This document shows positions 16,889-43,391 of a stretch of 64,000 nucleotides of DNA, in pieces; position 1 is the stretch's first letter; every line of letters starts with the position of its first letter. A model generated the notes under the pieces. The model saw only the letters and a list, made by a program, of their open reading frames with translations. It did no database searches and was not told the origin of the DNA. Position numbers and translations under genes: made by a program. The DNA comes from a virus. Where the stretch lies: positions 64,001 through 128,000 of the IMG/VR virus record IMGVR_UViG_3300027850_000002; one strand, written 5' to 3'.

Positions 16889-17109
16889 GTCATGTCCTTT
16901 TGAAATGCTAGAAGGGAAGTCACTCTAGTGATTTCGATGTTTGTTTGGCAAGCACTCACAGAAAGAAAATCTGGCGCTATTCCTGGGGTGCGTAACGAAA
17001 TGCTACGCAAGGGTGGTGGTGTACCCGCCGAGATTGGCACCCAACGGGTAGTGCCTGATCGTGGAACTATTTGATCACTCGTAAGACGCTTGGTAGTGTG
17101 TTCTTGAAT

Positions 17110-17898
17110 ATGGTGATCCCCCAGGCGCGTACCGCCTCGATGTACTACGCCGAAGTCGCACGGGTGCCGTTGGTGGATGACCCCACCGAAGAGAGGCGCC
17201 TGTTGCAACGATGGCAGCAACATCAAGACGTCAAGGCACGCAACGCCATCGTGCAAACCCATCTCCGCTTCGTCGTGAAGATGGCGCACAAGCGCAGCAA
17301 GGATCCCGAAGCCGTCAAGGACTTCATCGCGGCAGGAAACCTGGGTCTCCTTAAGGCGACCGACAAGTTTGACTGGGTACGCAAACCGTACATTCGCTTT
17401 CTGACGTACGCGGGTTGGTGGGTCTACGAAGAGATGTCGAATCAGGACTACACGACGGCCACGCTCGTTCACGTCCCCGCCCATCGCCAGAAAGCACAAC
17501 GCAGAAACGCACGGGAGTTCCGCGCGGCGGTCCAAGAGCACGGACCCGATGCTGCCTCGGTGCAGAAGATGAACCCCGGACTGTCCGAGAGCGTCGTCAT
17601 GCCGCTCGAGGCGGCGCGTTACACCACCAATGCGACCGAGAGTGAGCCGACGTCTACCTATGGGTCGGATCGGCTTCGTTCGATCGTTCGTGAGGTCATT
17701 GGTCGACTGCCTTCCCGAGAGCAGACCGTCCTCAACCTCTTCTACGGCATCAAAGACGATGCACGGAACTTGGTCCAGATCGCGGCCATCATGGGCATGT
17801 GCTCTGAGCGAGTTCGGCAAATCAAGACCAACGGGATGCGCTTACTTCAGGCTGAGTTCGAAGAAGAGCTGCTGACCGCCGAAGACGCGTATCTCTAG
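17110..17898 (+). CDS. RNA polymerase sigma factor, sigma70 family (regions 1.2, 2, 4)
   Basis: YYAEVARVPL...EERRL; HLRFVVKMA; DFIAAGNLGLLKATDKFD; RFLTYAGWWV; LPSREQTVL...SERVRQI. Confidence 0.92.
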   Translation: MVIPQARTASMYYAEVARVPLVDDPTEERRLLQRWQQHQDVKARNAIVQTHLRFVVKMAHKRSKDPEAVKDFIAAGNLGLLKATDKFDWVRKPYIRFLTYAGWWVYEEMSNQDYTTATLVHVPAHRQKAQRRNAREFRAAVQEHGPDAASVQKMNPGLSESVVMPLEAARYTTNATESEPTSTYGSDRLRSIVREVIGRLPSREQTVLNLFYGIKDDARNLVQIAAIMGMCSERVRQIKTNGMRLLQAEFEEELLTAEDAYL

Positions 17899-23123: not shown

Positions 23124-24914
23124 ATGGCCATTGATGGAATGTTCGACTCGGGCGTTTCCGATCTGTCGACGCACAACACGTCGTCACACGGTAGTCCACT
23201 GTTCGACTTCCTCACGGCGTTCGCGCCTAGGAAGCTCAAGGACCTCTTTCGTCTTTGCGAGTACCTCTACTTCAACAGCGCCCAGATCTACGCGGCATTG
23301 CAGAAGTTCTGTACGTATCCCGTCACGGACATCGTCTACGAGACGCAGAACGAAGCGCTCAAGGATTACTACGAAGACCTACACAACAAGACGCTCAAGA
23401 CCAAACGCATCTTGATCCGTGCGGCCGTCGACAAGTTCGTCTACGGAAACGCGTTCTTCTCGATGTACGCGCCGTTCGTTCGCTTCCTCAAGTGTCCGAA
23501 GTGCGCGACGCTGACCAACATCCAGCAGGTCACCTACAAGTTCAAGTTGAAGAAGCTGGCGTTCAACTACACGTGCAAGGGCTGCAGCGTTCGCGTCGAC
23601 GTCACTGACAAGGACGTCATCGATCGCAAGATCACACGCAAGGATCGTATCTCAGTGATCCGCTGGGATCCGAAGCTGATGGACATCGACTACAACCCCA
23701 TCACCGGACACAGCGAGTACTACTACACGATCCCCAAGGAAATTAAGGAGCGTTGCGCCAAGGGGAACAAGCACCTCATCGACACCATGCCGATGGAGTT
23801 CTTGAAGGCGATCCGCGAGGACAAGATCTTCAAGTTCGACGAGGGTCAAGTCTTCCACATGCGCATGGATGCGCCTGCGGGTATCGAAGCGCAGTGGGGC
23901 TTCCCGCCACTCGCGTCGACGATCAAGCTGTTCTTCTACGCGGCCGTGCTGCGTAAGGCGAACGAGGCCATCGCGCTCGAGTACATCGTTCCCCTGCGCA
24001 TCATCTCGCCGAAGCAGTCGACGGCAAACGCTGATCCGATGACCACCATCTCCTTGGCCAAGTGGTCCGAGGAGATGAAGACGTCGGTCAAGAAGTGGCG
24101 CCGCGATCCACTGCACATCATGTGGTCGCCAATCCCCGCCGAAGTCACACACCTCGGTGGACAGGCGCGCGCACTCATGACGCTCGGCGAAGTCCAGGCG
24201 GCTGAAGACAACATCATTGCAGCGATGGGGTTGCCCAAGGAGTTCATCTACGGAGGTTTCTCCGCGATGGGCTCGGGCATTCAGTTGCGCGTCCTCGAGA
24301 ATCAGCTCGTCCACCAAACCGGCGACCTCAATGACCTTCTTCAATGGGTCACTGACAAATCCGCGAAGCAGCTCGGACGTGGCACCGTGGTGGTCTCGCT
24401 CGCTCCGTTCCGTTTCATCGACGACGTCCAACAGAAATCCCTTCTGCTGCAGCTCAACGGCGCAGACCCATCGACGGGTCCTTGGATTTCCAAGCGCACG
24501 ATCGGCGTGGCGTTCGACATCGATCCAAGCGACGAGCGCAAGTGGCGCAAGCAAGAGGCGCTCGACGATGCGCGTGTCGCGCAAGAGCTGCAGGTCGAGA
24601 TGCAGAAGCGGCAGAACAACCTTGGAGCCCAGGCACGTGCGCAGGCTCAGCAAGGTCAGCAAGGGCTGTCCTACGACCAGCAGGCCGTGATCGCAGAGGC
24701 AGATCAGCTCGTGCAACAACTGATGGGGTTGGACCCGGGAACGCGGCAATCGCAAATGCACGCGCTTCAGACCGAAGACATGGTGATGTACGCCGTGGTC
24801 AAGGAACGTCTGCACGACCAGACCACGCAGCAAAACCAGCAAGCGATCGCAGCGGCCCGCCAAGGCGGCGATCCCGCAGCCAACGGAGTGCCCCCTCCAG
24901 GCGCCGTGGGTTGA
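23124..24914 (+). CDS. Portal protein
   Basis: First gene of the structural block; DKFVYGNAF clip-like motif, WGFPPL, 'IIAAMGLPKEFIYGG' portal-like helix; Q-rich tail. Confidence 0.75.
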   Translation: MAIDGMFDSGVSDLSTHNTSSHGSPLFDFLTAFAPRKLKDLFRLCEYLYFNSAQIYAALQKFCTYPVTDIVYETQNEALKDYYEDLHNKTLKTKRILIRAAVDKFVYGNAFFSMYAPFVRFLKCPKCATLTNIQQVTYKFKLKKLAFNYTCKGCSVRVDVTDKDVIDRKITRKDRISVIRWDPKLMDIDYNPITGHSEYYYTIPKEIKERCAKGNKHLIDTMPMEFLKAIREDKIFKFDEGQVFHMRMDAPAGIEAQWGFPPLASTIKLFFYAAVLRKANEAIALEYIVPLRIISPKQSTANADPMTTISLAKWSEEMKTSVKKWRRDPLHIMWSPIPAEVTHLGGQARALMTLGEVQAAEDNIIAAMGLPKEFIYGGFSAMGSGIQLRVLENQLVHQTGDLNDLLQWVTDKSAKQLGRGTVVVSLAPFRFIDDVQQKSLLLQLNGADPSTGPWISKRTIGVAFDIDPSDERKWRKQEALDDARVAQELQVEMQKRQNNLGAQARAQAQQGQQGLSYDQQAVIAEADQLVQQLMGLDPGTRQSQMHALQTEDMVMYAVVKERLHDQTTQQNQQAIAAARQGGDPAANGVPPPGAVG

Positions 24915-24929
24915 TAGGATAAACACACC

Positions 24930-25307: not shown

Positions 25308-25339
25308 TGGAGTCTTGTACCAAAAAGGACGCGTAACTC

Positions 25340-28300
25340 ATGGTGCCGCTACGCCCAATGCTCGAAGACGCGGCCACGCGTCGCGAGATGATCCGCAAGA
25401 AGGTCATCGAGGGTCTCGAACAATCGTTCCCGCTGAAGGCGGGCAAACACATGGTCGAGCTGTCCAACGTTCGGGTGGACCCGCAGGAGTTTTCCTCCCG
25501 CGAACAGAAGCGTGCGGTGCTCGAAGGCAAGACGTTATCGGAACGTGTACGCGGTGACATCACGGTCAAGAACGCAGCGGGCGGTGTCGTCGACCACTCG
25601 AAGGACTTCACACTGCTTCAGCTGCCGTACTTTACGCCGCGACACACGTTCATCCTCGACGGCACAGAGTACTCCGTATCGAATCAGCTGCGCACCAAAC
25701 CAGGCGCGTACGTCCGTCGCCGCGGCAACGAAGAGCTGGAGGCGACGTTCAACCTTTCAAAGGGCGCCAACTTCCGTGTGTCGATGGAGCCCGAGAAGGG
25801 CCTCCTCTACATGCAGCCGTCACACACGACGACCAAGATCCCGTTGCATCCCATCCTACGCGCGCTGGGGATGCCGCATCAGGACATCGCGGCCGGATGG
25901 GGCTCCGAAATCGCGGGCATGAATCGTGACGCTTGGAAGAATCCAGACAAGCACGTCAGCAAGCTTTACGAGACGCTCATCCATCCCGCGAAACAGGTCG
26001 CAGCGACCACAGAAGATCGAGCACACGCGTTGCGTGAATACTTCAGTGCAACGGCGATGGACCCTGAGGTCACTGCACACACGCTCGGTTATCCGTACGA
26101 CAAAGCTTCGTCATCGTCGATCCTGGCGGCATCCAAGAAACTGCTCGACGTGCACAGGGCCGCCGCCGATGTCGACGACCGTGACTCGTTGGCGTTCAAA
26201 ACGTTTCACTCCGTAGACGACTTCGTCAAAGAACGGGTTCAGCTGGAAGCGCGTGCGATGCGCGCAAAGCTTGGCTGGAAACTGGACGCGAGCCACGGCA
26301 ACCTGAAGAAGGCGCTGCCCGCAGGACCGTTCACGCGTTCGATGCACGGTCTCTTGGTGGGCTCGTCGCTTTCGGCGGTCCCCATGCAGATCAATCCGAT
26401 GGAGCTGCTCGACGAGGCGTCACGCGTCACGATGCTTGGTGAAGGTGCGATTGCGTCCGAGCGCGCGATCCCCCTCGAGGCTCGTGATGTTCATCCAACC
26501 CACTTCGGAATTCTGGACCCTGCACGCACGCCTGAAAGCTTCAAGGTGGGCGTGGACCTGCGCGCAACAATCGGCGCACGGCGTGATGACAAGGGAAACC
26601 TCTACGCGCCCGTGCGCGATATCAAGAGCGGCGCAGCGACGTATCTCAAGGCGGGCGACATGGCGAAGTCCGTCATCGCATTCCCTGGCGAACATGTCGG
26701 GCCAGGAAAAATGGTCGATGCGATGGCGCACGGAGTGGTGTCGCGTGTGTCGTCCGACAAGGTCACGCACCAGCTCGAACACGTCGCTGATCAGTACGGG
26801 CCGACCTCAAACCTGTTGCCGTTGGTCTACGGTATCCAGGCAAACCGCGTGCTCATGGCCAGCAAACACCAAGGCCAGGCATTGCCGCTCACGTACCGTG
26901 AAGCGCCGCTCGTACAGGTCGCGTCGTGGAAGCCAGGGACGTCTGTCGAACGAGAGATGGTCAAACTGATTGTTCCAACCGCGCGCTTCGCCGGCATGGT
27001 CACAAAGATCGACGACGATCACATCCACATCACGCCGCACACAGACAAACACGCATCTGAGGCCGCATCTGAAGTCGAGACGCGGTTGGAACGTGTGAAG
27101 GTGGCAGCGACGGAGCCTCACAAACTCCATTACGACGTGCACTTTCCGCTCGCTGCCAAGACGATGCTCCACAATGAGCTAACCGTGAAGGTGGGCGACC
27201 GTGTCGAAAAGGACCAGCTCCTCGCGCACTCGAACTTCACCAAGGACGGAACGCTCGCCCTCGGGACCAACCTGCGCGTGGCGTACATGCCCTACCGCGG
27301 CCTCAACACCAACGATGGCATCGTCGTATCGCAAGGCGCTGCGGACAAGCTCACCAGCGAACACATGTACCAACACGCGCTCTCACGTGACGGTGATGTT
27401 CAGCTAGGTCGAGAAAAACATCGTACGTACTTCGGCAGTCGCTACACCGCAGAGCAGTACAACAAGCTAGACGACGACGGTGTCGTCAAACCCGGTACGA
27501 CATTGCACAAGGGTGACTTGATTGTCGCGGGTATTCGAGAGAACAAAGTCACGGGGGACGCGCTCCTCCTTGGCAAGCTGTCCAAGTCCTTGGTCAAGCC
27601 GTATCAAGAAGTCACGCAAGTCTGGACGCACGACCATCCCGGTACGGTGATCGACGTTGCCAAGACCGCCAAGCAAGCCGCTGCATCTGTTCGTACGCAA
27701 GAAACGCTTCAAATCGGCGACAAGCTGTCCAACCGATTCGGCAACAAGGGCGTCATCGCGAAGATCATCCCAGATCATCAGATGATCCAGGACGAACACG
27801 GGCGCCCTGTCGACCTGCTGTTCACCTCCGCGGGCATCGTCTCGCGCATTAACCCCGCGCAGGTCATCGAGACAGCGCTCGGCAAAGTTGCTGAGAAGAT
27901 CGGCAAACCGATCGTCGTACCGCAATACACGCCGGGCCGAGACAACATCCAGTTCGCCAAGAACCTGCTCAAGGAGCACGGGCTCACCGACAAGGAAACG
28001 GTCCTCGACCCGATGACGGGAAAGAAAATCCCGAACATCGTCGTGGGCAAGAGCTACATCCTCAAGCTGTTCAAGACGACGGACTCGAACTGGGCAGCAC
28101 ACGGCGCCGAGAAGTACGACTACAACCAGCAGCCCGCACGTGGTGGTGACGAAGGCGCCAAGGGCATCGGCAAGATGGAGTTCGACGGGCTCGTGGCACA
28201 CAACGCCCGGAATGTGTTGCGTGAAGCTGCGTCCATCAAGAGCCAACGTAACGACGAGTTCTGGCGTGCAATTCAACTCGGGCTTCCAACACCCTCGCCC

Positions 28301-29755
28301 AAGACGCCGTTCGCCTACGACAAGCTGCAGAGCATGCTTACGGGCGCCGGCGTCAAGGTCACAAAGACAGGCTCGAGGCTCGCGTTGGGACCTTTGACCG
28401 ACGCCGACGTCAAGTCGATGTCCTCAGGTGCGCTCAAGGATCCGAGCAAGCTCATTCGCGCCAAGGACCTTCGTCCCGAGACACACGGTCTGTTCGACCC
28501 CGGCATGACCGGCGGTATGGCAGGAACGAAATGGTCACACGTCGATTTGCACGAACCGATCGTCAACCCAGTGTTCGAAGAGCCGGTCCGTCGACTGCTT
28601 GGGCTCACGCAGAAGGAGTTCACGGAGCGCGTCGGCAAAGGCGGGCAGTGGTTCAAAACCGCACTCAATGAGATTCACGTCGACAACAAACTGAAGGACC
28701 TGACAGCACAGTCAAAGAAGGCGCGCGGACCAGCGCTCGATGGTGTGGTGAAGCAGATCAAGTATCTCGGGGCGCTAAAGGAACGTGGCCTCAAGCCTGC
28801 GGACGCCTACGTCATCTCAATGGTGCCCGTGACACCGCCCGTGATTCGTCCAATCCTTCCGCTTCAAGATGGGCGACTGCAGGTCAGCGATGCGAACCTC
28901 CTCTACAAGGATGCATTCCTCGCGAACCACCAACTCCGAGAATCAGCGAAGACGTTGCCGTCGTCGGAACTTCCGATGCCTCGTCAACATCTCTACGACG
29001 CGGTGAGCGCGCTTTACGGCGTGGGTGACCCCGTCAGCCCAGGTGCAGAGAAGCGCGGAGCCAAAGGCTACCTCGCGGCCATCACAGGTACGCGCCCTGG
29101 AAGTGGGTTCTTCCAGTCCAAGATCATGAAGCGTCAACAAGACGTCAGTGGTCGCGCGACCATCGCGCCTGACCCTACCTTGTCAATGGACGAGATTGGC
29201 GTGCCTGAAGGCATGCTCTGGGGCATGTATGGAAAGTTCGTCATCGGGCGCTTGGTCCGACGCGGCTATACAGCAACGGATGCGCAGAAGATGGTGGATG
29301 ATCGTGTCCCGACTGCACGGGATGAATTGATCAATGAATCACATGAACGTCCGGTCATGGTCAACCGAGCACCGTCATTGCATCGTTTCAACATCGTGGG
29401 GGCGTATCCCAAGATTGTTGAGGGAAAGACGCTCAAGCTAAACCCGTTCGCTGAAAAAGGGATGAACGCGGACTACGATGGGGATGCGCTACAGATCCAC
29501 GCTCCGGTAACACCTGGAGGCATCGAAGACGTCAAAAAGATGACGCTCTCGCACCTGATCTTCGCGGACAAACGTCCCGGCGTCTTGAACATCGCGCCTG
29601 ACATGGAGGCCGTGCTCGGGCTGCACCGTGCCACGCAGGTGGCCACCAATAAGAAGCTCAAGCACTTCGAGTCGCAAGAAGAAGCGATGGCGGCGTACCA
29701 CCGCGGGGACATCACCCTCAACGACCCCATCGAAATCAAAGGCAAGCACCTATAA
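25340..29755 (+). CDS. Phage DNA-directed RNA polymerase: complete beta-like subunit fused to the N-terminal (catalytic) half of beta'
   Basis: beta motifs FILDGTEY..SNQLR, RDVHPTHFG..TPE, NRVLMASKHQGQA, LALGTN..AYMPY, GDKLSNRFGNKGV, SRIN, QQP..G..IGKME; beta' motifs GLFD, VPVTPPVIRP, DVSGRATI, NRAPSLHR, NADYDGD (29465-29485). Confidence 0.95.
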   Translation: MVPLRPMLEDAATRREMIRKKVIEGLEQSFPLKAGKHMVELSNVRVDPQEFSSREQKRAVLEGKTLSERVRGDITVKNAAGGVVDHSKDFTLLQLPYFTPRHTFILDGTEYSVSNQLRTKPGAYVRRRGNEELEATFNLSKGANFRVSMEPEKGLLYMQPSHTTTKIPLHPILRALGMPHQDIAAGWGSEIAGMNRDAWKNPDKHVSKLYETLIHPAKQVAATTEDRAHALREYFSATAMDPEVTAHTLGYPYDKASSSSILAASKKLLDVHRAAADVDDRDSLAFKTFHSVDDFVKERVQLEARAMRAKLGWKLDASHGNLKKALPAGPFTRSMHGLLVGSSLSAVPMQINPMELLDEASRVTMLGEGAIASERAIPLEARDVHPTHFGILDPARTPESFKVGVDLRATIGARRDDKGNLYAPVRDIKSGAATYLKAGDMAKSVIAFPGEHVGPGKMVDAMAHGVVSRVSSDKVTHQLEHVADQYGPTSNLLPLVYGIQANRVLMASKHQGQALPLTYREAPLVQVASWKPGTSVEREMVKLIVPTARFAGMVTKIDDDHIHITPHTDKHASEAASEVETRLERVKVAATEPHKLHYDVHFPLAAKTMLHNELTVKVGDRVEKDQLLAHSNFTKDGTLALGTNLRVAYMPYRGLNTNDGIVVSQGAADKLTSEHMYQHALSRDGDVQLGREKHRTYFGSRYTAEQYNKLDDDGVVKPGTTLHKGDLIVAGIRENKVTGDALLLGKLSKSLVKPYQEVTQVWTHDHPGTVIDVAKTAKQAAASVRTQETLQIGDKLSNRFGNKGVIAKIIPDHQMIQDEHGRPVDLLFTSAGIVSRINPAQVIETALGKVAEKIGKPIVVPQYTPGRDNIQFAKNLLKEHGLTDKETVLDPMTGKKIPNIVVGKSYILKLFKTTDSNWAAHGAEKYDYNQQPARGGDEGAKGIGKMEFDGLVAHNARNVLREAASIKSQRNDEFWRAIQLGLPTPSPKTPFAYDKLQSMLTGAGVKVTKTGSRLALGPLTDADVKSMSSGALKDPSKLIRAKDLRPETHGLFDPGMTGGMAGTKWSHVDLHEPIVNPVFEEPVRRLLGLTQKEFTERVGKGGQWFKTALNEIHVDNKLKDLTAQSKKARGPALDGVVKQIKYLGALKERGLKPADAYVISMVPVTPPVIRPILPLQDGRLQVSDANLLYKDAFLANHQLRESAKTLPSSELPMPRQHLYDAVSALYGVGDPVSPGAEKRGAKGYLAAITGTRPGSGFFQSKIMKRQQDVSGRATIAPDPTLSMDEIGVPEGMLWGMYGKFVIGRLVRRGYTATDAQKMVDDRVPTARDELINESHERPVMVNRAPSLHRFNIVGAYPKIVEGKTLKLNPFAEKGMNADYDGDALQIHAPVTPGGIEDVKKMTLSHLIFADKRPGVLNIAPDMEAVLGLHRATQVATNKKLKHFESQEEAMAAYHRGDITLNDPIEIKGKHL

Positions 29756-29756: not shown

Positions 29757-29761
29757 AAAGC

Positions 29762-30130
29762 GTGTCCTTCGTCAGCAACGCGCACGGTCGAGGCGTGGTC
29801 GCCGCTCTCGTGCGGTTCGGTCTCAAGAACGCAGCCGAGGAGCTGCGGCTGAAAATCCCGAGCCGTACGTTTCACGGATTCGACGCGGCCCACAAAACAG
29901 AAGCGGACCGCGGCGCGAAGAAAGCAGCTGACGAGATCGAGGGCAACGCGAACAACCTCGCGGACATGTTCAAGCAGCTCGAAGAGGGTGTTTCACCCGC
30001 CGTTCAGCTTGCCTCGCGTGACCCGCTCGATCGACAAGTGTCGTGGGGCGCACCGTCGAACCTTGCGGCCGGCGATGCGGGGAACCGCGTTAGTGATATG
30101 GGACAACCAACCGGCTTTGGAGGCGTCTGA
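29762..30130 (+). CDS. Small protein with shared N-terminal signal motif
   Basis: SNAHGRGVVAALVRFGLKNAA. Confidence 0.7.
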   Translation: MSFVSNAHGRGVVAALVRFGLKNAAEELRLKIPSRTFHGFDAAHKTEADRGAKKAADEIEGNANNLADMFKQLEEGVSPAVQLASRDPLDRQVSWGAPSNLAAGDAGNRVSDMGQPTGFGGV

Positions 30131-30537
30131 TGCTCGATCGTTTTGTTAACCAGGGTCGCATTGACGCGATGGTGCGTTTCAAGGTCAGCATGTCGCTGGG
30201 TAAACCAGGTGGCGGGAGTCGCTTCAGCGCTCCGCCAATGGCAGCAGCACCGGCTGCGGCTGCCGCCAGTGCGGGCGGCGGCGGTTTCATGGACAAGGCC
30301 AAAGCGTTCGGCAGTGGCCAGCTCGGGGCCGCGAAGGACCTTCTGGGCAATATGCGCCAAGGCCTCGGCGGAGCAGCGTCCCCCGAGCTAGGTGCGGCAG
30401 CTCGCGGTGCTGCGCTCGGCAATCTCAAGACTCTCGCGCCGTCGCTCCTCGCAGGCGGCGGTCTCTACTTGATGCACAAGCACAAGCAGGAGCAGGCGCA
30501 GGCGCGGCAGCAGCAGATGATGCCGGGCAGTTTCTGA
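30130..30537 (+). CDS. Gly/Ala-rich protein with shared N-terminal signal motif and C-terminal hydrophobic segment
   Basis: FVNQGRIDAMVRFKVS; LAPSLLAGGGLYLM. Confidence 0.7.
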   Translation: MLDRFVNQGRIDAMVRFKVSMSLGKPGGGSRFSAPPMAAAPAAAAASAGGGGFMDKAKAFGSGQLGAAKDLLGNMRQGLGGAASPELGAAARGAALGNLKTLAPSLLAGGGLYLMHKHKQEQAQARQQQMMPGSF

Positions 30538-30548
30538 AACGTTGAACC

Positions 30549-32330
30549 ATGCCGACGACCCTTGGCCAACATCTCGTCGATTCGATCCTTCCACAGAAGT
30601 GGAAGGGTGGCGGCGTTCTGACCAAGGGCGCGTTGAACACCATGCTTCTGGGTGTGGCCAAGGACGACGTGCACAAGTACCCCGACGTCGTGACACGGCT
30701 CAAAAGGCTGGGTGACGAGGTCGCTACGCTCGACGGAATTTCCGTCGGTCTCGACGACATTGCACCGCACGCAACCGACCGTGACGCCGCGTTGAAGCCG
30801 CACGCTGACGCGTTCCACCAGGCGACGAACAACCCCGACAAGATCAAGGCCCTCATCGGCGGGCAGAACGCGATGCTCAACCTCGCGCGCAATCACCCCG
30901 GCACGATGGGTGAGATGGTACGTGCTGGCGGACGCGGCAACGCCGCGCAGCTCATGCGTACGGTTGGAGCGCCGGTGTTTGCCGAAGATTCCAAAGGGAA
31001 AGTCATCCCGTGGTTCGTCAACAAGAGCTTCTCCGAAGGACTCAAGCCGGCAGACGCATGGGTGATGGGCGGGCAGGCGCGCGTCAATGCGGTGGTCTCG
31101 AACATTTCGGTCGTTGAACCAGGAGACCTTGCCAAAATTCTCGTCAACAACATGGGCGACCAGCTCGTGTCGTCCGTCGACTGCGGAACGCACAATGGTC
31201 TCGCGATGCTTCCGACCGATGCCCACATCATCGATCGGTACCTGGCAGGCACGAATCAACTGATCACGCCGCAGCTTGCGTCGCACCTCGCCAAAGAAGG
31301 CAAGGACGTCATCGTGCGTTCACCGATGACTTGTCAGGCCGCACACGGTGTCTGTCAACACTGCCAGGGCTTGTCGACGTCAGGACACGCCCACCCCATC
31401 GGGACGAACATCGGCGTACGCGCGGCACAGGCCCTCGCGGAACCTCTCACCCAGTTCGCGCTCAACGCCAAGCACGGCGGACGTGTGGTTGGTGTCGACG
31501 ACGAGAAGCGGCTCGAGGGCATCAAAGGCGTGCGAGCACTGCTCGAGATTCCATCGTCGTTCGCGCACAAGGCCGTGCTCTCGGATCGTGACGGGTCGGT
31601 GTCAAAGATCGACAAGGCACCACAAGGCGGTCACTTCGTCTTCGTCGGCGCCGGCAGTCACTACGTACCGCCCGCGCACAAGGTGACGGTCAACGTCGGC
31701 CAGTCAATGTACGCGGGCGACCTGCTCTCAGACGGCGTTCCCAAGCCAGACGAAATCGTTCAACACAAGGGACTCGGCGAAGGACGGCGTTACCTCGTCG
31801 ACGCGCTCTCGGACGTCTACAAACGTGCCGGCTCCGAGATCGACAAACGGCACCTGGAAATCTTGGCCAAGAGCGTGCTCAACCACGTTCAGATCACAGA
31901 CCCAGGTCCGCACGATGCCTTTCTCAAAGGTGACATCGTCAACTACAACCAGTTCCAGTCGGCGGTCGCTGCGTCGAAACAACGGCGTCCGACGGCAGAC
32001 GCGATCGGCGAAACGCTTGCCGAAGGCGTCCTACATCACACTGCGGGCACGTCCATGACACAGCCGATGGTCGATCAACTCGTTCGCCACGGAATCACAA
32101 CCGTCGCGACCGCGAATCCCGGTCCGCGCGCACTGCCTTTCATGCGGCCCGCGTCACGTACGCCGCTGCTCAACCCTGATTGGATGGCACGTCTCGCACA
32201 CCGTTACTTGAAAGAGTCACTGTTGACGGGCATCCACCGTGGTGATGTTTCGAACTTGCATGGAGCGTCACCCGTACCTGCGTACGTTGCAGGCACTGAG
32301 TTTGGCTTAGGCGAAGAGGGCCATTACTGA
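30549..32330 (+). CDS. Phage RNA polymerase beta' C-terminal half (bridge helix, trigger loop)
   Basis: TTLGQ..ILP, SVGLDD, AGGRGN, SFSEGL, DCGT, RSPMTC..GVCQHC, AAQALAEPLTQFALNAKHGG, IDKRHLEI. Confidence 0.93.
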   Translation: MPTTLGQHLVDSILPQKWKGGGVLTKGALNTMLLGVAKDDVHKYPDVVTRLKRLGDEVATLDGISVGLDDIAPHATDRDAALKPHADAFHQATNNPDKIKALIGGQNAMLNLARNHPGTMGEMVRAGGRGNAAQLMRTVGAPVFAEDSKGKVIPWFVNKSFSEGLKPADAWVMGGQARVNAVVSNISVVEPGDLAKILVNNMGDQLVSSVDCGTHNGLAMLPTDAHIIDRYLAGTNQLITPQLASHLAKEGKDVIVRSPMTCQAAHGVCQHCQGLSTSGHAHPIGTNIGVRAAQALAEPLTQFALNAKHGGRVVGVDDEKRLEGIKGVRALLEIPSSFAHKAVLSDRDGSVSKIDKAPQGGHFVFVGAGSHYVPPAHKVTVNVGQSMYAGDLLSDGVPKPDEIVQHKGLGEGRRYLVDALSDVYKRAGSEIDKRHLEILAKSVLNHVQITDPGPHDAFLKGDIVNYNQFQSAVAASKQRRPTADAIGETLAEGVLHHTAGTSMTQPMVDQLVRHGITTVATANPGPRALPFMRPASRTPLLNPDWMARLAHRYLKESLLTGIHRGDVSNLHGASPVPAYVAGTEFGLGEEGHY

Positions 32331-33057: not shown

Positions 33058-34362
33058 ATGTTCAAGCATGCGTACGTCCGAGGCATCCAGACCGCGTTGG
33101 TCAACAACGGCGCAGCCGTGTTCCCCGACGAGACCACCGCGGCCAAGGTCGCGGACTACATCGCAGAGCGTGTCGAGATCGACCCGCTGACGGCGGTGCC
33201 ACGTGAGCTGACCCACAAGGTCGCCACTGACATCGTCGCTGCTTCGGATTGGATCAAGAAGCAGCCGAACTTCAAGGCGGCATCGTTCAACAAGCTCGCG
33301 ACGTGGGAAGACGTTGCGCAGGTCGCGGACCGCAACGCGACCCAGTTGATGACGAAGGCCGCCGAGGGTTCCACCATCGAAGGTGGCGACAAGGGAAACA
33401 CCGAGGGCCAGTCGCCTGTTGGTGAGACCAAGATGGACGCGACCCAGCGTCCTCCGGGCTACGCCGAGAACAGCCTCGGCAAGACCGACGTCGACACCCG
33501 TCCGGGCGCAGTTGGCAAGGAAGAGCCGCAGCCGGTTCAGCCCAAGGAGACTGACCACAAGGACAACTCGGTCGTGGAGCACTCGCGCACCGCGTCGCTC
33601 GCGGACATGTTCCGCAAGTCGGCTGAGGGTTCGACGATCCTCGGCGGAGACAAGGGCAACAAGGAGCCGACGACTGGCGAAGGCAAGATGGACGCGACGC
33701 AGCGTCCTCCGGGCTATGCCGTCCTTCCCCACCAGGGCGCCCTCGGTGCCATGATGGAGCAGGTCACGGGCCCCGCAGTGATCGGTCGCGAGACCCCGCA
33801 GCCGCACATGCCGAAGGAGTCGCCGAGCGGTTCGAACTCGCTCACCGAGCACTCGGCCAAGGCCGCTGCTGAAGACCCGTACATCACGCTCTTCAAGAAG
33901 GTCGCGTCCGAGATCCACGAGTACCTTCCGGGCGGTCTTCACGAGGACAGCAAGATCGCCGCGGTTCGCGCCTGCATGGGCATGACGACCGAAGAGAAGG
34001 CGTACTACCTCCGTGGCTTGCAGAAGGAAGCGGCCGACGCGTCGGTTGGTTCGGAAACGCGCACGGGTATGGGTCGCTCGCGTCCCGGTGCCTACGACGG
34101 TCGCTCTGCCAACCAGAGCACCAAGCAGACCGATGACCTTCCGCCGTTCATGAAGAAGGACGACGACGAGAAGAAGGACGAGAAGAAGGACGACGACAAG
34201 GGTGAGAGCAAGGGCGGAATGCCGGCATTCATCCAAGACAAGATCGACGCCCGCAACGCCGACAAGAAGGACGGCAACAAGGACGAGAAGAAGGATGACG
34301 ACAAGAAGGAAGCTTCGTTGCGCGACTTCTTCCGTCGCATCGACGCGGCCCAGCGCGCGTGA
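33058..34362 (+). CDS. Probable internal head/core protein with signal motif, about 12 K-x-A-type sites and an 87-aa internal duplication
   Basis: KHAYVRGIQTAL; two KxAEGSTIxGGDKGN...KMDATQRPPGYA units; K/D-rich tail. Confidence 0.7.
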   Translation: MFKHAYVRGIQTALVNNGAAVFPDETTAAKVADYIAERVEIDPLTAVPRELTHKVATDIVAASDWIKKQPNFKAASFNKLATWEDVAQVADRNATQLMTKAAEGSTIEGGDKGNTEGQSPVGETKMDATQRPPGYAENSLGKTDVDTRPGAVGKEEPQPVQPKETDHKDNSVVEHSRTASLADMFRKSAEGSTILGGDKGNKEPTTGEGKMDATQRPPGYAVLPHQGALGAMMEQVTGPAVIGRETPQPHMPKESPSGSNSLTEHSAKAAAEDPYITLFKKVASEIHEYLPGGLHEDSKIAAVRACMGMTTEEKAYYLRGLQKEAADASVGSETRTGMGRSRPGAYDGRSANQSTKQTDDLPPFMKKDDDEKKDEKKDDDKGESKGGMPAFIQDKIDARNADKKDGNKDEKKDDDKKEASLRDFFRRIDAAQRA

Positions 34363-34526
34363 GCCTTCTGCGTCACATCCGAGAAGCAGGTCGTCTCGCC
34401 GTCGAGAGCAAGCTCGCCGAGATCCTGAACCCTAGCCTCGGCACGCTCAAAGCGAAGAAGACGAAGGAGCTAGGCGGCCTCCCTGACGCAAATCTTCCCA
34501 AGGTCGTCTCTTTTCCCGCAGCGTAG
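34359..34526 (+). CDS. 55-aa protein with variant signal motif (not in ORF track)
   Basis: GTGA overlap; MSLLRHIREAGRLAVESKLAEILNP...; ends 12 nt before the next ATG. Confidence 0.6.
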   Translation: MSLLRHIREAGRLAVESKLAEILNPSLGTLKAKKTKELGGLPDANLPKVVSFPAA

Positions 34527-34538
34527 ACGAGGTCCCAT

Positions 34539-37526
34539 ATGCCGGCGATGAGCCCACGCACACAGCAATTTCAAGCGGGCATGAATACCGGTCCGGACCA
34601 AGAGTCCGCTCTGTTCGAGCAGGGCATGTCCGAGATGGCATACAACCTGTTGTCATCGCGCATGCCCGACTTGATGCAGGACGTGGTCACCTTCAAGGTG
34701 CTCAACGTCGACATCGACAAGGGATCTGGTGTTGGTGCGTTCGTGGTCTTGCGCCAAGACTCGCCGATCTACGTCCCGGTCGTGATGGTCGACAATGCCA
34801 TCAAGCCGCTGGAAATTTTCTACCACAAGGCGCTGAGCGTCTTTCTGCCCCTCTCCAAGGGGTGGCTGGATGAGATCGAAAAGACGGCGCTCGCGTCACT
34901 CGGCTCTGGTGTCAAAACGCCCGAGACGCTCTACACGGACGTCGACATCCGCAACGTGGTCGTTCCCCCGATCACGGGTCGGTTCTCGTACGCCGCGTGG
35001 GTTCCCGCGGCTCTCGTTGACGTCGCACGTGTGATGTCCTCTGAGACCCTCGAGAAGGTCGCAAGCGAAGGAAGCCTCATGCTTCCGTCGCTCCTCACAG
35101 CTGCGCCGAACCGTCTGAAAACGGCGTACACCAAGCTGCTCGAACGCAACCCTCAGCTGTTCAAGCAGGCAGCTGCAACGTACGGCGTGTCCGTACTTGC
35201 TGCAGCGTTGCAGCACCGGCTCGAGAAGGTCGCTGCCAAGCAGCAGCACGGTGGCGCGCTTTGGATCGCGGACTCCGACAACACACCGACTGATTTCAGA
35301 CGCATCTTCGGCGACAAGGCCGGAGAAGCGTACGCAGGCGTGCGCGTGAAGGGCTACGCGTCGAAGGACGAGCGGCTGAACCGCAACCTGGCAGTGCAAG
35401 AGCAACCCTACGCGCAGTGGGTCGAGCCCAAGCAGCCGGGCGTCTACACGCTCTTCGCTTCTGATGCGAAGGAGCGCACTGCGTTTGTGATGCCTTTCCC
35501 GATTGACCTGTTCGACAAGGGCACGCGCTACGGCCGACGTCCGGCAGTGCCGGGACACAACCCGCTCATCAACAACTCGTACACAGACCCTGGTACCGAG
35601 AACCAGATCAAGACGTACCCCCACAGTCGGCCAAACGAGGGGGACTTTGCAACCCGTCGGCGTTTTGGCGCTGAACCGTTCCTCGCGGTGTTCGACAACG
35701 GAGACTACATCGAGCCGTCGATGCTCGTGGGACGTCCTTCCGTTGCAGATGATCTCAGCGGGTCACTGCACAAGCGGATGTTCACAGATGTGAGCGGAGC
35801 GCCGAAGGTCGGCAAGGGCTTCTTCGTTCGTCAGATGGGTACGACGTACCAAGCCACGGTGCCCATCGAGATCAAGTCGATGTCGACGGGCTCGGACGGT
35901 GTTCGTCGCATCAAGGCGACCAGCATGGGTGGCTACGAAGAGAAGACGATCGCAACAGACCCCGAGCATCCGTACAACACGATCTGGATGCCCAAGGGCG
36001 CGGACATCGCGTACCTCCCTGCGGACTTCATCTGGGTGCCGCTCAAGGAGCGCCTCAACGAGAAGTCCTGGTTCAGGTCTGCACTTGACCTACAGGCACA
36101 CGTTTCGTCGATGTTGGCTTCAGCAGGCGCGAAGAAGGTCGCGATCAAAGACGCGGGTGCCAAGCAGTTCTCCATCAACGGGATGGCACCACTCAGCTAC
36201 GTCCCTGCGCTCAAGAAACTTGCGCACGGTTGCAACATCTCGGTCGATGACGCTGAAGCACTGCTCGAAAAGACTGCGGCCGATCGATCAACGACCGCAT
36301 GGATCGCCACGAAGATGCAGCTCGCACAGGTGCAGATGCACCTCGACAAGCTTGCCGAGGACGGAGACAAGAAGAAGTCCGACGACAAGCCGAAGAAGAA
36401 GGCGCCTCCGAGCGATTCCGGAGCGCCTCCGGATGGCGGTGATCCAGGCATGGACCCGGGCATGGATCCAAACCTCGGCCAGGACGCGGCGATGGCTGCA
36501 ATGGGCCCTCCGCCGGCACCGCCGCAGCCAGCGCCGCTCGACCTCGCCGCAATGGAAATGGACCAGCACATCCAGCAGGAGATGCAGAAGCTGGTCGACA
36601 AACAGCAGACCATCCAGATGCTGCTGCAGCGTTCGAGTGAGATTGCAGGCGGCGCACCGCCCGCACCTACCGTTCAGACTCAAGCGATGGGCGCACCTCC
36701 GTCGTCGATGAACCTCGCGACGGGCGCTCCAGGCATGCAGCCCGGCATGACCGCCAGCATGGGTCAGCCGCAGCAGCCCGGCATGGATCCGTCGATGCAG
36801 GGTGGAGCGTTTCCACCTGCAGCGAACGACCCGTCGATGATGGGTGGACAGCCGCCCGGCGGTGGTCAGCCCGGCATGGACCCATCGATGGGCATGGACC
36901 CGACGATGGGTGGTCAGCCCGGCATGGACCCATCGATGGGCATGGACCCATCGATGGGCATGGACCCGACGATGGGTGGTCAGCCCGGCATGGATCCGTC
37001 GATGGGCATGGACCCGACGATGGGTGGTCAGCCCGGCATGGATCCGTCGATGGGTGCAGGCGGACCGCCTGCTATGGGTCAGGATCCGTCAATGATGGGC
37101 GGCATGGGCGGACAGCCCAGCATGGAACAGCCGCCACAACAGCCCAGCGCAATGATGCCGCCGGATGGTCCGAACGCGCAGACGCTTCCTCAGGAAGTCA
37201 ATCCGCACTTCCTCGACCAGGCGGCGCAGTTGCATTCGGCCGACATGTTCGACGCCGCAGCCGTTGCGACGCTCGCCCAGTCGCCGGCGCTTCACGGGAT
37301 CGTCGGGCAGTACCTGCCGAACCTCGAGAAGGCTGTCGACAACCTTGCACGTGTTCTCTTGACCTTGTGGATGCAGGAGTCGGACCTCAAGCCGCAGATC
37401 GGCGAACAGACCTTCTCGGGCCTCGAGGACAACCTGCAGACGACGTTCAAGGGTCTCGGAGACCTCGTGCTCCGTTTGAGCCGTGGTGTTCAGGCGGTCA
37501 AGGAGCCGGACAACCATGCGTCATGA
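34539..37526 (+). CDS. Large head-associated protein with K-x-A sites and Gly/Met/Pro repeat region
   Basis: 995 aa; EKVAS, EKVAA, EKTAA, DKLAE; GMDPSM repeats. Confidence 0.75.
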   Translation: MPAMSPRTQQFQAGMNTGPDQESALFEQGMSEMAYNLLSSRMPDLMQDVVTFKVLNVDIDKGSGVGAFVVLRQDSPIYVPVVMVDNAIKPLEIFYHKALSVFLPLSKGWLDEIEKTALASLGSGVKTPETLYTDVDIRNVVVPPITGRFSYAAWVPAALVDVARVMSSETLEKVASEGSLMLPSLLTAAPNRLKTAYTKLLERNPQLFKQAAATYGVSVLAAALQHRLEKVAAKQQHGGALWIADSDNTPTDFRRIFGDKAGEAYAGVRVKGYASKDERLNRNLAVQEQPYAQWVEPKQPGVYTLFASDAKERTAFVMPFPIDLFDKGTRYGRRPAVPGHNPLINNSYTDPGTENQIKTYPHSRPNEGDFATRRRFGAEPFLAVFDNGDYIEPSMLVGRPSVADDLSGSLHKRMFTDVSGAPKVGKGFFVRQMGTTYQATVPIEIKSMSTGSDGVRRIKATSMGGYEEKTIATDPEHPYNTIWMPKGADIAYLPADFIWVPLKERLNEKSWFRSALDLQAHVSSMLASAGAKKVAIKDAGAKQFSINGMAPLSYVPALKKLAHGCNISVDDAEALLEKTAADRSTTAWIATKMQLAQVQMHLDKLAEDGDKKKSDDKPKKKAPPSDSGAPPDGGDPGMDPGMDPNLGQDAAMAAMGPPPAPPQPAPLDLAAMEMDQHIQQEMQKLVDKQQTIQMLLQRSSEIAGGAPPAPTVQTQAMGAPPSSMNLATGAPGMQPGMTASMGQPQQPGMDPSMQGGAFPPAANDPSMMGGQPPGGGQPGMDPSMGMDPTMGGQPGMDPSMGMDPSMGMDPTMGGQPGMDPSMGMDPTMGGQPGMDPSMGAGGPPAMGQDPSMMGGMGGQPSMEQPPQQPSAMMPPDGPNAQTLPQEVNPHFLDQAAQLHSADMFDAAAVATLAQSPALHGIVGQYLPNLEKAVDNLARVLLTLWMQESDLKPQIGEQTFSGLEDNLQTTFKGLGDLVLRLSRGVQAVKEPDNHAS
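36861..37055 (+). repeat. Coding tandem repeat (48/66/48-nt units built from 18-nt GMDP[ST]M modules)
   Basis: ggtggtcagcccggcatgga[ct]cc[ag]tcgatg at 36861, 36909, 36975, 37023. Confidence 0.9.
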
Positions 37527-38187
37527 ACGCAGTCCCGACGACCGATTTCACGCCACTCTCCGGTCTCCGCATGCACCGGCGCATCCGTACGAAAACGCAC
37601 TCTGGCAGCACAAGACCGCGGGTGTGGCTGATGCCGTCGTTGAGCGTGTAGTCGACGCATACGAAGACCACTTCGAGCGCGAACTGCTTCAGGCATGGAT
37701 CATTGCGGGTGCAACCGACGAAGACATCAACAGGCGCATCGGCATGTCGCTTGATATGTTGATTCAGTACCGCCATCTCTGCTGCAACGTTTTCGCGTTT
37801 CGCGACAAACTAGAGATGATGCGATGGGTCAATAACTACAAGGGTTCTCGCTCGGGCAAGATTCTGCTCGAGAAGGCGCTCCACTTCGACGGCATCGAAG
37901 CAATCGCACACTTGAGCGGTCTTCCGACCAATCTCAGCGCAGACCATGTCAACGAGCAAGTACTGCGTGAATCATACTTCCGAGGCATCAGCACACTACG
38001 CGCCTCGAGCATCTCGGGACCTGACGCATTGGCCGCACATCAACTGATGAAGACTGCGACTGCTACGGCTGCGGCTGTGGCAAATCGAGGTGGACCGAAC
38101 ATGTCGGAGACGTTGCTCAAACTCAAGCACCGCGAGGTGACGTGGCATGTCGAGGACATCGCGCCTCACGGGGAGATTCTTCACTGA
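37516..38187 (+). CDS. Hypothetical protein
   Basis: Probable start MRHERSPDD at 37516, overlapping the upstream stop region. Confidence 0.7.
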   Translation: MRHERSPDDRFHATLRSPHAPAHPYENALWQHKTAGVADAVVERVVDAYEDHFERELLQAWIIAGATDEDINRRIGMSLDMLIQYRHLCCNVFAFRDKLEMMRWVNNYKGSRSGKILLEKALHFDGIEAIAHLSGLPTNLSADHVNEQVLRESYFRGISTLRASSISGPDALAAHQLMKTATATAAAVANRGGPNMSETLLKLKHREVTWHVEDIAPHGEILH

Positions 38188-42751: not shown

Positions 42752-42753
42752 AT

Positions 42754-42782
42754 TTGTTTTTCACCGCACGGCCCCCTATCAT
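42754..42782 (+). promoter_or_regulatory. Promoter TTGTTT-N17-TATCAT (CCCCCTATCATT)
   Basis: Intergenic, upstream of GGAG SD and ATG 42810. Confidence 0.65.
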
Positions 42783-42809
42783 TTTCACCGTAACGGAGAC
42801 GGCAATTCC

Positions 42810-43388: not shown

Positions 43389-43391
43389 TCC

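Follow-up and report, generated by a model that had tools for sequence, protein, structure and literature searches.

A Lys-x-Ala-flanked loop in the RNA polymerase of an uncultured phage: a candidate head-protease site and a possible slot for exchangeable cargo

T4-type phages load the IPs and Alt into the prohead, where the protease cuts these proteins at a short motif that scaffold proteins also carry, and inject them together with the DNA. The phiKZ-like phages package a multisubunit RNA polymerase (RNAP) in the head and eject it for early transcription (PMC5694885, PMC10052503); for 201phi2-1, cleavage of the virion RNAP (vRNAP) beta chain at TFE-275 by the prohead protease is reported (PMC5694885). 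Polyvalent proteins combine GNAT, ParB-like and other domains in one packaged polypeptide and are proteolytically released after delivery (PMC5512222, Iyer et al. 2017). Finally, the Salmonella phage Arash study reports more spectra for Gp206 than for any other protein of the particle proteome (3516 spectra, 128 unique peptides), as well as 1210 spectra for Gp216 (PMC10585845). Primase, ligase, helicases and ribonucleotide reductase were likewise present in the Arash particles, and the authors caution that abundant enzymes may be carry-over (PMC10585845). We left out the ‘coverage’ column of Table 2 in that source, which reads 100% for proteins with two peptides.

The window – the whole stretch of DNA that was analysed – comprises 64,000 nucleotides (positions 64,001 to 128,000) of the IMG/VR virus record IMGVR_UViG_3300027850_000002, which spans 175,415 bp in total and is 94% complete as estimated by CheckV. 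The genes that matter for the argument, as assigned by sequence comparison, are the following:

17071..17898, + strand: sigma-70-family factor gene, open frame of 279 aa (PF04542 Sigma70_r2, E 2.6e-9)
23124..24914, + strand: portal protein, heading the tightly spaced portal-RNAP block (Arash gp204, 28% identity, E 2e-93)
25340..29755, + strand: RNA polymerase chain 1 of 1471 aa, in which the whole of beta is joined to the N-terminal half of beta' (Pfam, Arash gp206, Foldseek)
29762..30537, + strand: two small genes (products of 122 and 135 aa) separating the RNAP chains, with a shared N-terminal leader
30549..32330, + strand: RNA polymerase chain 2 of 593 aa, comprising the C-terminal half of beta' (Pfam Rpb1_5, E 1.8e-17)
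33058..43667, + strand: head module rich in K-x-A
41009..42751, + strand: head-maturation-protease-like protein, 580 aa (phrog_18299 ‘head maturation protease’, E 1.9e-7; Arash gp222, 37% identity, E 4e-44)
44890..45828, + strand: major capsid protein of 312 aa (Arash gp226, 40% identity, E 1e-76)

Chain 1 has Pfam matches above cut-off to Rpb2_6 (E 3.6e-47), Rpb1_2 (E 1.9e-20) and Rpb2_3 (E 2.6e-8), as well as an Rpb1_1 match (E 1.1e-8) that falls under the curated cut-off, and the catalytic motif NADYDGD can be read in the translation close to the C-terminus. In the GenBank phage collection it matches Arash gp206 best, with 34% identity across 99% of the length; the profile match to bacterial beta in the PDB has an E of 5.9e-46, and the top Foldseek matches are bacterial beta chains at an E of about 1e-16. 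As judged by these matches, the two chains make up a bacterial-type multisubunit (beta/beta') RNAP. It is the single RNAP set of the phage, with one PF00562 match across the record. The Sigma70_r2 match of the sigma-70-family gene is above cut-off (G000:C1:81248-81436, corresponding to 17248-17436 of the window), and its product is a likely partner of the phage RNAP.

As the earlier note had pointed out, the RNAP genes lie between the portal (23124-24914) and the head genes (capsid at 44890-45828). The order portal, small gene, RNAP is common to the window and Arash (gp204, gp205, gp206), and intergenic gaps are -1 to 32 nt throughout, from the portal gene to position 32776. The leader is found at the N-terminus of the two small proteins encoded between the RNAP chains, of the product of 32330-32776 and of small proteins of the head module (five N-termini aligned); K-x-A occurs 3 times against 0.9 expected in the protein encoded from 29762 and 0 times in that encoded from 30130. 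A scan of 22800-34700 yielded one promoter-like element as compared to a shuffle mean of 2.0, and seven terminator-like elements as compared to 12.4, i.e. fewer than in the shuffles.

In the head module, K-x-A occurs 71 times against 27.8 expected (z 9.7) and ranks first of 400 gapped pairs. All five relatives tested show the same top rank among 400 in their head modules (z 6.4-9.3), and K-x-A is the top gapped pair in Arash gp218-226, with 46 observed and 21 expected (z 6.3); the capsid protein has a conserved K-E-A at about residues 27-29. The enrichment is limited to K followed by A with a gap of exactly one residue, and does not extend to A-then-K or to other gaps; as this specificity of order and gap survives 30-residue local shuffles, we rejected a composition artefact. 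The residue that follows a head-module K-x-A is biased towards S (2.9-fold over background) and A (2.0-fold). Replication proteins are not enriched (24 observed, 27.4 expected). Across the window and the five relatives, head-module counts of K-x-S are neutral and those of K-x-G fall below expectation (z -2.3 to -3.3), and neither is enriched even in those relatives that have K-T-S or K-T-G in the RNAP loop described below. K-x-A is probably the motif cut by the phage’s head-maturation protease, and the enzyme acting on it is presumed to be the protease-like protein encoded at 41009..42751; our literature search found no paper tying a Lys-x-Ala motif to a prohead protease.

The frame of chain 1 (25340-29755, + strand) reads HITPHTDKHA/SEAASEVETRLERVKVA/ATEPHKLHYD at a loop with these features:

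27047..27055, + strand: site 1, K570-H571-A572, the loop’s resident K-x-A, candidate cut after A572 (translation)
27056..27106, + strand: 17-residue insert SEAASEVETRLERVKVA, S573-A589 (translation, homologue alignment)
27098..27106, + strand: site 2, K587-V588-A589, at the end of the insert, with its candidate cut after A589 (translation)

The earlier note had singled out this stretch (27040-27115, i.e. T568-E592) as two K-x-A sites bracketing a helical insert in a hairpin loop. The two sites and the hairpin are borne out: in an AlphaFold2 model of residues 401-767, strands 561-566 and 594-597 flank the loop, and the loop segment aligns to the place where bacterial beta has a tight hairpin (M. 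tuberculosis chain 6edt_C, within 517-806). The helix is not, as residues 571-589 are modelled as coil without secondary structure at pLDDT <50, the model (mean pLDDT 65.7) being weak at the loop. Judged by the translation, the model and the inserts of up to 218 residues that it tolerates, the loop is an exposed place that carries the motif enriched in the head module. Both sites are strict K-x-A followed by favoured residues, S and A, respectively, and a cut at site 2 would create the predicted new N-terminus ATEPHK.

The closest relatives without an insert read, for example, IEPDAKTAA-LTTKLHYD (L003) and ITPDAKHAS-VVEGTKIHYD (L006). We saw SEAASEVETRLERVKVA in this phage only: it is absent from 13 distinct near relatives and from all 118 other distinct homologues among the matches listed. 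At the start of the insert there is an 8-nt direct repeat, GCATCTGA (27053-27060 and 27065-27072), which encodes ASEA/ASEV. We rejected an intein as the identity of the insert, since it is incompatible with the junctions (KHA/SEA and KVA/ATE), the length of 17 residues and the lack of His-Asn plus nucleophile or a Hint domain, and in a Pfam search no intein family matched the loop region of chain 1. A relic of a GNAT cassette finds no support at the DNA level: when the window was aligned with L019, L006 and L003, the window and L019 had the upstream flank ITPHT(D/E)KH(A/S)S in common, but the 17-residue insert showed no likeness to the L019 GNAT insert. K-x-A is not enriched in chain 1 (13 observed, 10.6 expected), and across both RNAP genes the count is 16 against 14.0. 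Since K-x-A is at chance level in this protein, two such sites 17 residues apart are unremarkable by themselves, and the excess over chance for the loop sites comes solely from the comparison with relatives.

We found 1117 homologues at E <= 1e-20 and analysed the loop in the best 120 of them (49-100% identity). The loop was taken by anchor-based extraction instead of column-wise conservation, since a shift of one or two columns in the alignment of the loop made its site look less conserved than it is. The check proposed in the earlier note, for retention of K-x-A by homologues at this place, came out positive. Among the best 120 of 1117, K-x-[ASG] is kept in 118 of 120 otherwise variable loops, a relaxed-motif count that is inflated by structure since 22 of 37 distant-clade hairpins have K-D-G as a plain turn; strict K-x-A is found in 83 of the 120, and K-x-S or K-x-G only in the other 37. 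At the N-side junction K-x-[ASG] is present in 117 of these 120 loops – 62/64 short, 39/39 medium and 16/17 large – and 62 of the 64 short loops contain exactly one K-x-[ASG]. The middle residue of the loop site has the highest entropy (3.06 bits) among all K-x-[ASG] sites in the protein.

Sites at both the N and the C junction are found in 51 of the 56 loops longer than 19 residues (best 120 of 1117), while in the same proteins the relaxed motif occurs in 14.2% of random 10-residue windows and in 20.7% of 14-residue windows. In all 17 inserts of at least 100 residues in this set of 120 out of 1117, a relaxed site falls within the final 14 residues, and in 12 of the 17 there is a strict K-x-A there, which occurs in 6.5% of 14-residue windows of the same proteins. 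In the remaining five large inserts, as read by eye, strict K-x-A stands directly after the domain, ahead of a further FYSDF element. The aligned distant-clade polymerases all (37/37) have a tight 8-residue turn without insert or loop site. These comparisons suggest that the K-x-[ASG] loop site is conserved in the relatives beyond its surroundings.

Whole domains occupy 17 of the loops (best 120 of 1117), GNAT and at least five other kinds. GNAT cargo was detected in P0003 and P0117 (Pfam PF00583/PF13508), and other cargo matches two PHROG families without known function (phrog_30942, E 2e-16; phrog_17560, E 2.6e-12). A ‘YHGSP’ type has three free-standing homologues, and a further type has a Walker-A motif read by eye; the labels ‘ParB-like’, ‘hydrolase-like’ and ‘P-loop’ likewise denote motifs read by eye. 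Pfam searches with four typed non-GNAT inserts gave an E of 0.14 at best. For the ‘YHGSP’ type, Atlas gave a weak lead to an Arr-type ADP-ribosyltransferase (score 0.85, rank 15), the profile search against the PDB reached an E of 0.3 at best, and Foldseek returned nothing at E <= 0.001 with a poor AlphaFold2 model (pLDDT 57.8).

The cargo turns over. On a FastTree tree of 120 backbones without the loop (best 120 of 1117), cargo versus no cargo is scattered and requires 15 changes; the sister pairs P0046/P0053 and P0091/P0094 have different cargo, and the window’s closest relatives include one with a short loop (P0004) and one with a GNAT loop (P0003). In the phage studied here, a genome-wide domain search found no GNAT. 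No peptidase family was found in the 10 homologues scanned, and each cargo-bearing relative has one cargo domain. True LAGLIDADG inteins are present elsewhere in the near-clade RNAPs P0084, P0046 and P0092.

We propose that the polymerase is packaged and that the prohead protease nicks it, or excises a segment from it, at the candidate sites in the loop; we judge this to have an even chance of being correct. The phage’s only multisubunit RNAP would be made late from the portal-RNAP block and built into the prohead, where the protease (41009-42751) would cut head and scaffold proteins after Lys-x-Ala. The same protease would cut the polymerase at the exposed beta hairpin loop, after A572 and A589, freeing the 17-residue SEAASEVETRLERVKVA and leaving a nicked, still assembled enzyme of 572 aa + 882 aa + the C-terminal half of beta'. 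This enzyme would be ejected with the DNA and begin transcription using the phage sigma factor. Packaging is plausible by analogy, from the Arash particle data and the homology to Arash together with the tight portal-RNAP block; the earlier note’s interpretation, a virion-packaged and protease-matured RNAP, is partly supported.

In the near clade the loop would act as an exchangeable slot: the segment between the sites would enter the capsid on the polymerase and be released as a free protein. The pieces carried in this way would be GNAT acetyltransferases, members of the two functionally unassigned PHROG families, a P-loop domain and further types, and the window’s 17-residue insert would be a minimal or remnant filling. 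Somewhat short of even odds, in our estimate, is the broader proposal that the loop of this uncultured lineage’s virion-carried RNAP is a fast-exchange slot, with enzymes placed between Lys-x-Ala sites being packaged, freed and injected as effectors. Equally tentative is the rest of this cargo-slot reading: the passengers may be GNAT, ParB-like (by eye), P-loop and unknown families, the polymerase may be nicked yet active, and the window may represent the minimal state.

Alternatively, the tolerant hairpin could be a permanent insertion hot spot: the domains would stay in cis, for instance as a tethered acetyltransferase, and the K-x-small flanks would be an uncut linker or turn. Bacterial RNAPs tolerate permanent lineage-specific inserts, which are common in both beta and beta', so excision would be unnecessary for function. 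A loop that accommodates inserts of 0 to 218 residues and lacks strict K-x-A in 37 of 120 cases (both for the best 120 of 1117) fits such a hot spot, as do an RNAP that is not K-x-A-enriched overall and a K-x-G that distant-clade hairpins use as a plain turn and that is depleted in head modules. What permanent insertion leaves unexplained, however, is why the exact head motif stands at the C boundary of unrelated cargo (12/17 strict as compared to 6.5% in the control, with the other five large inserts, read by eye, having strict K-x-A right after the domain), and why 62 of 64 short loops in the best 120 of 1117 keep a single site amid variable surroundings. We regard this explanation as unlikely, while giving it some weight.

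Quite improbable, in our view, is that the K-x-A loop is a docking signal, i.e. a substrate-like handle for the protease or the scaffold core that draws the polymerase into the prohead, with cutting being secondary. A handle of this kind would be in line with the saturation of head-core proteins with K-x-A, with the retention of the site in short loops that have nothing to excise, with the leader-tagged small proteins interleaved among the RNAP genes and with the SPN3US vRNAP entering the prohead pre-assembled (PMC5694885). However, the loop site is missing in Arash and in 37/37 distant-clade RNAPs, yet the Arash RNAP is abundant in particles – hence the nick cannot drive packaging – and docking does not call for a second site behind each insert. 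Very improbable is that the 17 residues merely remain, as neutral sequence, from a chance event such as the loss of a cargo cassette or a local duplication, with the two sites being without present role. In favour of such a leftover are the chance-level number of sites within this protein, the occurrence of the insert in this phage alone among the best 120 of 1117 homologues, the repeat GCATCTGA with which it opens, and closest relatives that include both a short and a GNAT loop. Against it, both sites are strict K-x-A with favoured next residues, they fit the clade-wide rule (51/56, best 120 of 1117), and the lack of DNA likeness to the L019 GNAT cassette leaves a relic origin unsupported.

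If the polymerase is indeed packaged and cut by the head protease, a phage with a single RNAP would start transcription without the host enzyme, using the polymerase packaged in the last cycle, and Lys-x-Ala would be added to the specificities of prohead proteases. The cargo slot, if real, would constitute an undescribed effector-packaging route, by means of excisable passengers within a loop of an enzyme that the phage cannot do without. It would be a new way of loading injected proteins and, by its use of proteolysis, a new counterpart to inteins. Cargo exchange on a short time scale is a typical arms-race pattern, and the slot would then offer a catalogue of candidate anti-defence or host-takeover enzymes.

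How does the locus compare with the described systems? Arash (gp206/gp216, OQ632216) and the Vibrio phages D69, D148 and D181 have the same two-chain layout, with 34% identity over 98-99%. Arash has homologous protease-like and capsid proteins, and K-x-A is the top pair in its head module as it is here; it differs in that its hairpin is a tight turn, KGEDGKEH, without K-x-A or insert, and K-x-A in the Arash RNAP is at expectation (10 observed, 9.8 expected). The earlier note had likened the polymerase to those of phiKZ and N4. The phiKZ likeness holds as far as the type of enzyme is concerned: the phiKZ-like vRNAPs (SPN3US, 201phi2-1, phiKZ) are multisubunit and encoded near the prohead protease in the head-gene region, as here. 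It does not extend further, since phiKZ-like phages have two RNAP sets and no sigma (PMC7824862), with beta and beta' split into 4-5 chains, whereas the phage studied here has one set, a sigma-70-type gene and a beta fused to beta'N. The known phiKZ-like cut removes an N-terminal propeptide at x-x-E, whereas the candidate here is an internal loop cut at K-x-A; SPN3US vRNAP beta is unprocessed (PMC5694885). The C-terminal half of AR9 beta (7s00_C) starts roughly 100 residues upstream of this loop, so the AR9 gene split and the proposed nick are at different places. The likeness to N4 fails because the N4 RNAP is a single-subunit enzyme, a T7-like domain in a giant virion protein, whereas here we found only multisubunit beta/beta' domains.

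In T4, each cargo has its own gene, an N-terminal targeting peptide and a motif ending in Glu, whereas here the cargo would sit in the loop of an enzyme with a Lys-x-Ala site on each side. The polyvalent proteins of phages and conjugative elements string their domains end to end and free them by means of an embedded peptidase domain (MPTase); here there would be one loop cargo and the head protease would do the cutting, and the window’s own insert amounts to 17 residues without a cargo domain. As with inteins, a segment would be removed post-translationally from an essential enzyme; in contrast to inteins, proteolytic excision would leave a nick and not a religated chain.

The first RNA polymerase (RNAP) chain carries the Pfam domains of β and of the N-terminal half of β′ together with the catalytic motif NADYDGD; its Rpb1_1 match falls under the Pfam cut-off. 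It is the only β-type gene in the whole 175,415-bp IMG/VR record (94% complete by CheckV), of which the window covers 64001–128000; the G+C content of the window is 59.6%. Identities below refer to Arash, a distantly related cultured Salmonella phage (OQ632216; PMC10585845).

Genes in and around the polymerase region
17071–17898, + strand: sigma-70-type gene
23124–24914, upstream of RNAP chain 1: portal (28% identity, E 2e-93, to Arash gp204)
25340–29755, + strand: RNAP chain 1, 1471 residues (Pfam Rpb2_6, E 3.6e-47; Rpb2_3; Rpb1_2, E 1.9e-20)
30549–32330: RNAP chain 2, C-terminal half of β′ (Pfam Rpb1_5)
29762–30130, 30130–30537, 32330–32776, 39988–40446 and 43392–43667: leader-bearing small proteins, partly glycine-rich
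41009–42751: protease-like gene (phrog_18299, E 1.9e-7; 37% identity to Arash gp222)
44890–45828: major capsid protein (40% identity to Arash gp226)

An earlier note had placed the RNAP genes between portal and head genes, interleaved with genes bearing a signal motif, and this description holds, given the portal, protease and capsid matches, the tight spacing (one strand from the portal through 32776, with −1 to 32 nt between genes) and an N-terminal leader that alignment finds common to three of the four small RNAP-interleaved genes and the small head-module proteins. The leader (M-x-L-D/E ... G-x-x-D/A-A-L/M-V-R-F-x-L/V-K, in some proteins with K-x-A or K-x-S at its end) is probably the ‘signal motif’ of that note, and could be a capsid-targeting leader. 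Scanning 22800–34700 for promoter and terminator consensus sequences gave fewer matches than shuffled sequence. Elsewhere in the window, the sigma-factor gene is overlapped by a longer minus-strand ORF (16885–17820, 311 aa), a probably spurious frame with little G+C at third codon positions (0.57). The large terminase subunit (5045–7723) is interrupted by a LAGLIDADG-type insert (PF14528, E 0.00098), probably an intein, with GpA_ATPase on its N-terminal side and a phrog_675 terminase match on its C-terminal side; the family A DNA polymerase (8340–11294) begins with a uracil-DNA-glycosylase-superfamily domain (PF03167, E 2.1e-10), followed by exonuclease and polymerase domains.

In the head module (33058–43667) K-x-A ranks first of 400 gapped residue pairs, with 71 observed against 27.8 expected (z 9.7), while in replication proteins it stays at expectation (24 vs 27.4). 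Composition does not explain the excess, because only the K-then-A order with a one-residue gap is enriched, and it persists under local 30-residue shuffles. K-x-A also ranks first in the head modules of five out of five relatives tested (z 6.4–9.3) and in Arash gp218–226 (46 vs 21.0 expected, z 6.3). The 70 head-module sites favour L at −2 and E at −1 relative to K, T, V or I in the middle, and A or S after the motif; the two RNAP loop sites are followed by S and A. This pattern suggests that K-x-A may be the cut site of the head protease; our literature search returned no paper tying a prohead protease to a Lys-x-Ala-type motif. The second-highest pair, P-x-M (34 vs 10.8 expected), owes its rank to long low-complexity GMDPSM/GMDPTM repeats at residues ~636–860 of the 995-aa protein at 34539–37526, which holds 24 of the 34. 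In the protein at 33058–34362 an internal repeat is headed by the motif (...TKAA/EGSTIEGG at residue 100, ...RKSA/EGSTILGG at residue 187). The capsid protein and Arash gp226 both retain K-E-A ~27–32 residues from the N-terminus, a candidate maturation site.

The polymerase peptide reads as the earlier note had it, HITPHTD-K570-H-A572/S573...V-K587-V-A589/ATEPHKLHYD (DNA 27047–27106). A profile search pairs the hairpin with a tight hairpin of M. tuberculosis β, immediately ahead of the conserved stretch that opens Rpb2 domain 6, and the top Foldseek matches of the modelled region are bacterial β chains (E ~1e-16). The putative sandwich-barrel placement given in that note agrees with an N-terminal domain of this kind described as common to phage and bacterial β (PMC7824862). 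The insert had also been called helical. This finds no support in our AlphaFold2 model (residues 401–767, 50-row alignment, mean pLDDT 65.7), since between strands 561–566 and 594–597 residues 571–589 are predicted to be unstructured, with pLDDT below 50. A search for related loci gave 68, and the 13 distinct near relatives all lack the 17-residue insert (e.g. IEPDAKTAA-LTTKLHYD, ITPDAKHAS-VVEGTKIHYD). The DNA of the insert bears no likeness to the GNAT cassette of a relative, and an 8-nt repeat at its opening hints at a small duplication.

Taken alone, two K-x-A motifs 17 residues apart are unremarkable. RNAP chain 1 holds 13 (10.6 expected) and both RNAP genes together 16 (14.0 expected), and the argument therefore depends on relatives. 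Searching with residues 440–720 gave 1117 proteins at E ≤ 1e-20, of which we examined the best 120 (49–100% identity; an exact duplicate of the window’s protein was removed and the window’s own kept, the set again being 120), excising every loop between two conserved anchors. Among these best 120 of 1117, exactly one K-x-[A/S/G] occurs in 62 of the 64 short loops (≤ 19 residues), and 51 of the 56 longer ones have separate sites at the N-side and C-side junctions, the exceptions being P0010, P0019 (site 12 residues off the anchor), P0092 (N-side K-Q-N), P0116 (C-side R-V-A) and P0121. As a control, random windows in the same proteins hold the relaxed motif in 14.2% (10 residues) or 20.7% (14 residues) of cases and strict K-x-A in 6.5% (14 residues). 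In an 87-row alignment the lysine and a small residue of site 570 are conserved and all else varies; no other K-x-[ASG] site of the protein reaches the entropy of its middle residue (3.06 bits). The third residue of the first loop site is A in 63, S in 39 and G in 16 of the best 120 of 1117, with none in two. In 26 relatives (P0048–P0119 etc.) the loop is filled by an acidic-aromatic element, (D/E)(D/E)x(F/I/V)Y(S/N/C)DF(L/I/M)K(L/V)(G/A), which in six more follows a cargo domain; it ends in K-x-G oftener than K-x-A. The distant clade (31–41% identity) has an 8-residue turn without insert in 37 of 37 aligned rows, and the Arash hairpin, KGEDGKEH, likewise has none. A further K-x-A at residues 57–59 (25508–25516, SREQ-K-R-A-VLEG) resembles the loop site in behaviour: K57 and A59 are both conserved in 13/13 near relatives, the 86 other sequences of the 87-row alignment all have K and A if a shift of ±3 columns is allowed, and the middle residue is free to change (R, H, T, L, V, M, K; 2.54 bits). 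It could be an additional cut site close to the N-terminus.

Whole domains of 117–218 residues occupy 17 of the loops (best 120 of 1117). The cargo comprises GNAT acetyltransferases (Pfam; P0003, P0117), two functionally uncharacterised PHROG families, phrog_30942 (E 2e-16) and phrog_17560 (E 2.6e-12), a ‘YHGSP’ type whose homologues include three stand-alone proteins (88–130 aa), a type found in P0092 only among these 120 of 1117, and a Walker-A-like GPSGSGKST type in one loop, named by eye only. The last 14 residues hold a relaxed site in 17/17 and strict K-x-A in 12/17; in the other five, read by eye, strict K-x-A comes right after the domain, followed by the short acidic-aromatic element (...EFYSDFLKLG...) with its C-terminal K-x-G or K-x-S. 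On the N-side the site is relaxed in 16/17 and strict in 7/17. One free-standing ‘YHGSP’ homologue, P0129, has a 13-residue leader with K-L-A at its end, abutting the domain (MPSLYALYMTKLA/AVSYHGS); the leader, present in one of the three free-standing sequences, resembles a cleavable targeting peptide.

On a FastTree phylogeny of the best 120 of 1117 backbones, loop removed, cargo versus no cargo requires 15 changes and the seven GNAT rows seven. Both counts are approximate, since branch support comes as local values alone and several branches are long. Backbones that are almost identical differ in their cargo (P0046 phrog_30942 vs P0053 GNAT; P0091 vs P0094) or in having any at all (P0003 GNAT, P0008 short loop). 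Many clade RNAP genes (L003, L007, L010, L017, P0084, P0046, P0092, P0112) are 300–480 residues longer than the window’s, the extra lying outside the loop; several contain LAGLIDADG or intein-splicing domains, and the polymerase gene is therefore an intein target besides offering a cargo slot.

The most likely reading, at about even odds, is that the polymerase is packaged and nicked by the head protease at the hairpin loop, with the bracketed piece removed. The excised piece would be a turnover-prone cargo enzyme in relatives and, in the window’s phage, the 17-residue insert. Against this reading, 37 of the best 120 of 1117 loops contain no motif stricter than K-x-S or K-x-G; across all tested head modules, including those of relatives with K-T-S or K-T-G in the RNAP loop, K-x-S is neutral and K-x-G depleted, and 22 of 37 distant-clade hairpins use K-D-G as a plain turn. 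Ser and Gly are thus either tolerated weaker sites, or the relaxed signal is in part structural, and strict K-x-A counts are the safer ones. The loop might alternatively be a permanent hot spot for inserts, or its motif a docking handle; the window’s own insert might be a neutral relic.

As for packaging, no near-clade phage was found in the GenBank phage collection (best tblastn match 34% identical, megablast none). In the Arash particle proteome, Gp206, one of its RNAP chains, gave the most spectra of all particle proteins (3516; 128 unique peptides), against 1210 for the other chain, Gp216, 1333 for the capsid protein and 467 for sigma Gp10; 116 proteins are termed ‘structural’, including primase, ligase, helicases and ribonucleotide reductase, and the authors caution that abundant enzymes may be carried over (PMC10585845). 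These data show the loop site to be dispensable for RNAP presence in particles, because the Arash RNAP is there without it. In phiKZ-like phages a multisubunit RNAP is packaged pre-assembled; an N-terminal propeptide is cleaved off the 201phi2-1 vRNAP β at TFE-275, whereas SPN3US β is unprocessed (PMC5694885, PMC10052503). The domain kinds found as RNAP-loop cargo in relatives recall those of packaged polyvalent proteins (PMC5512222), but here a single passenger is housed within a loop of an essential enzyme and flanked on either side by the putative head-protease motif.
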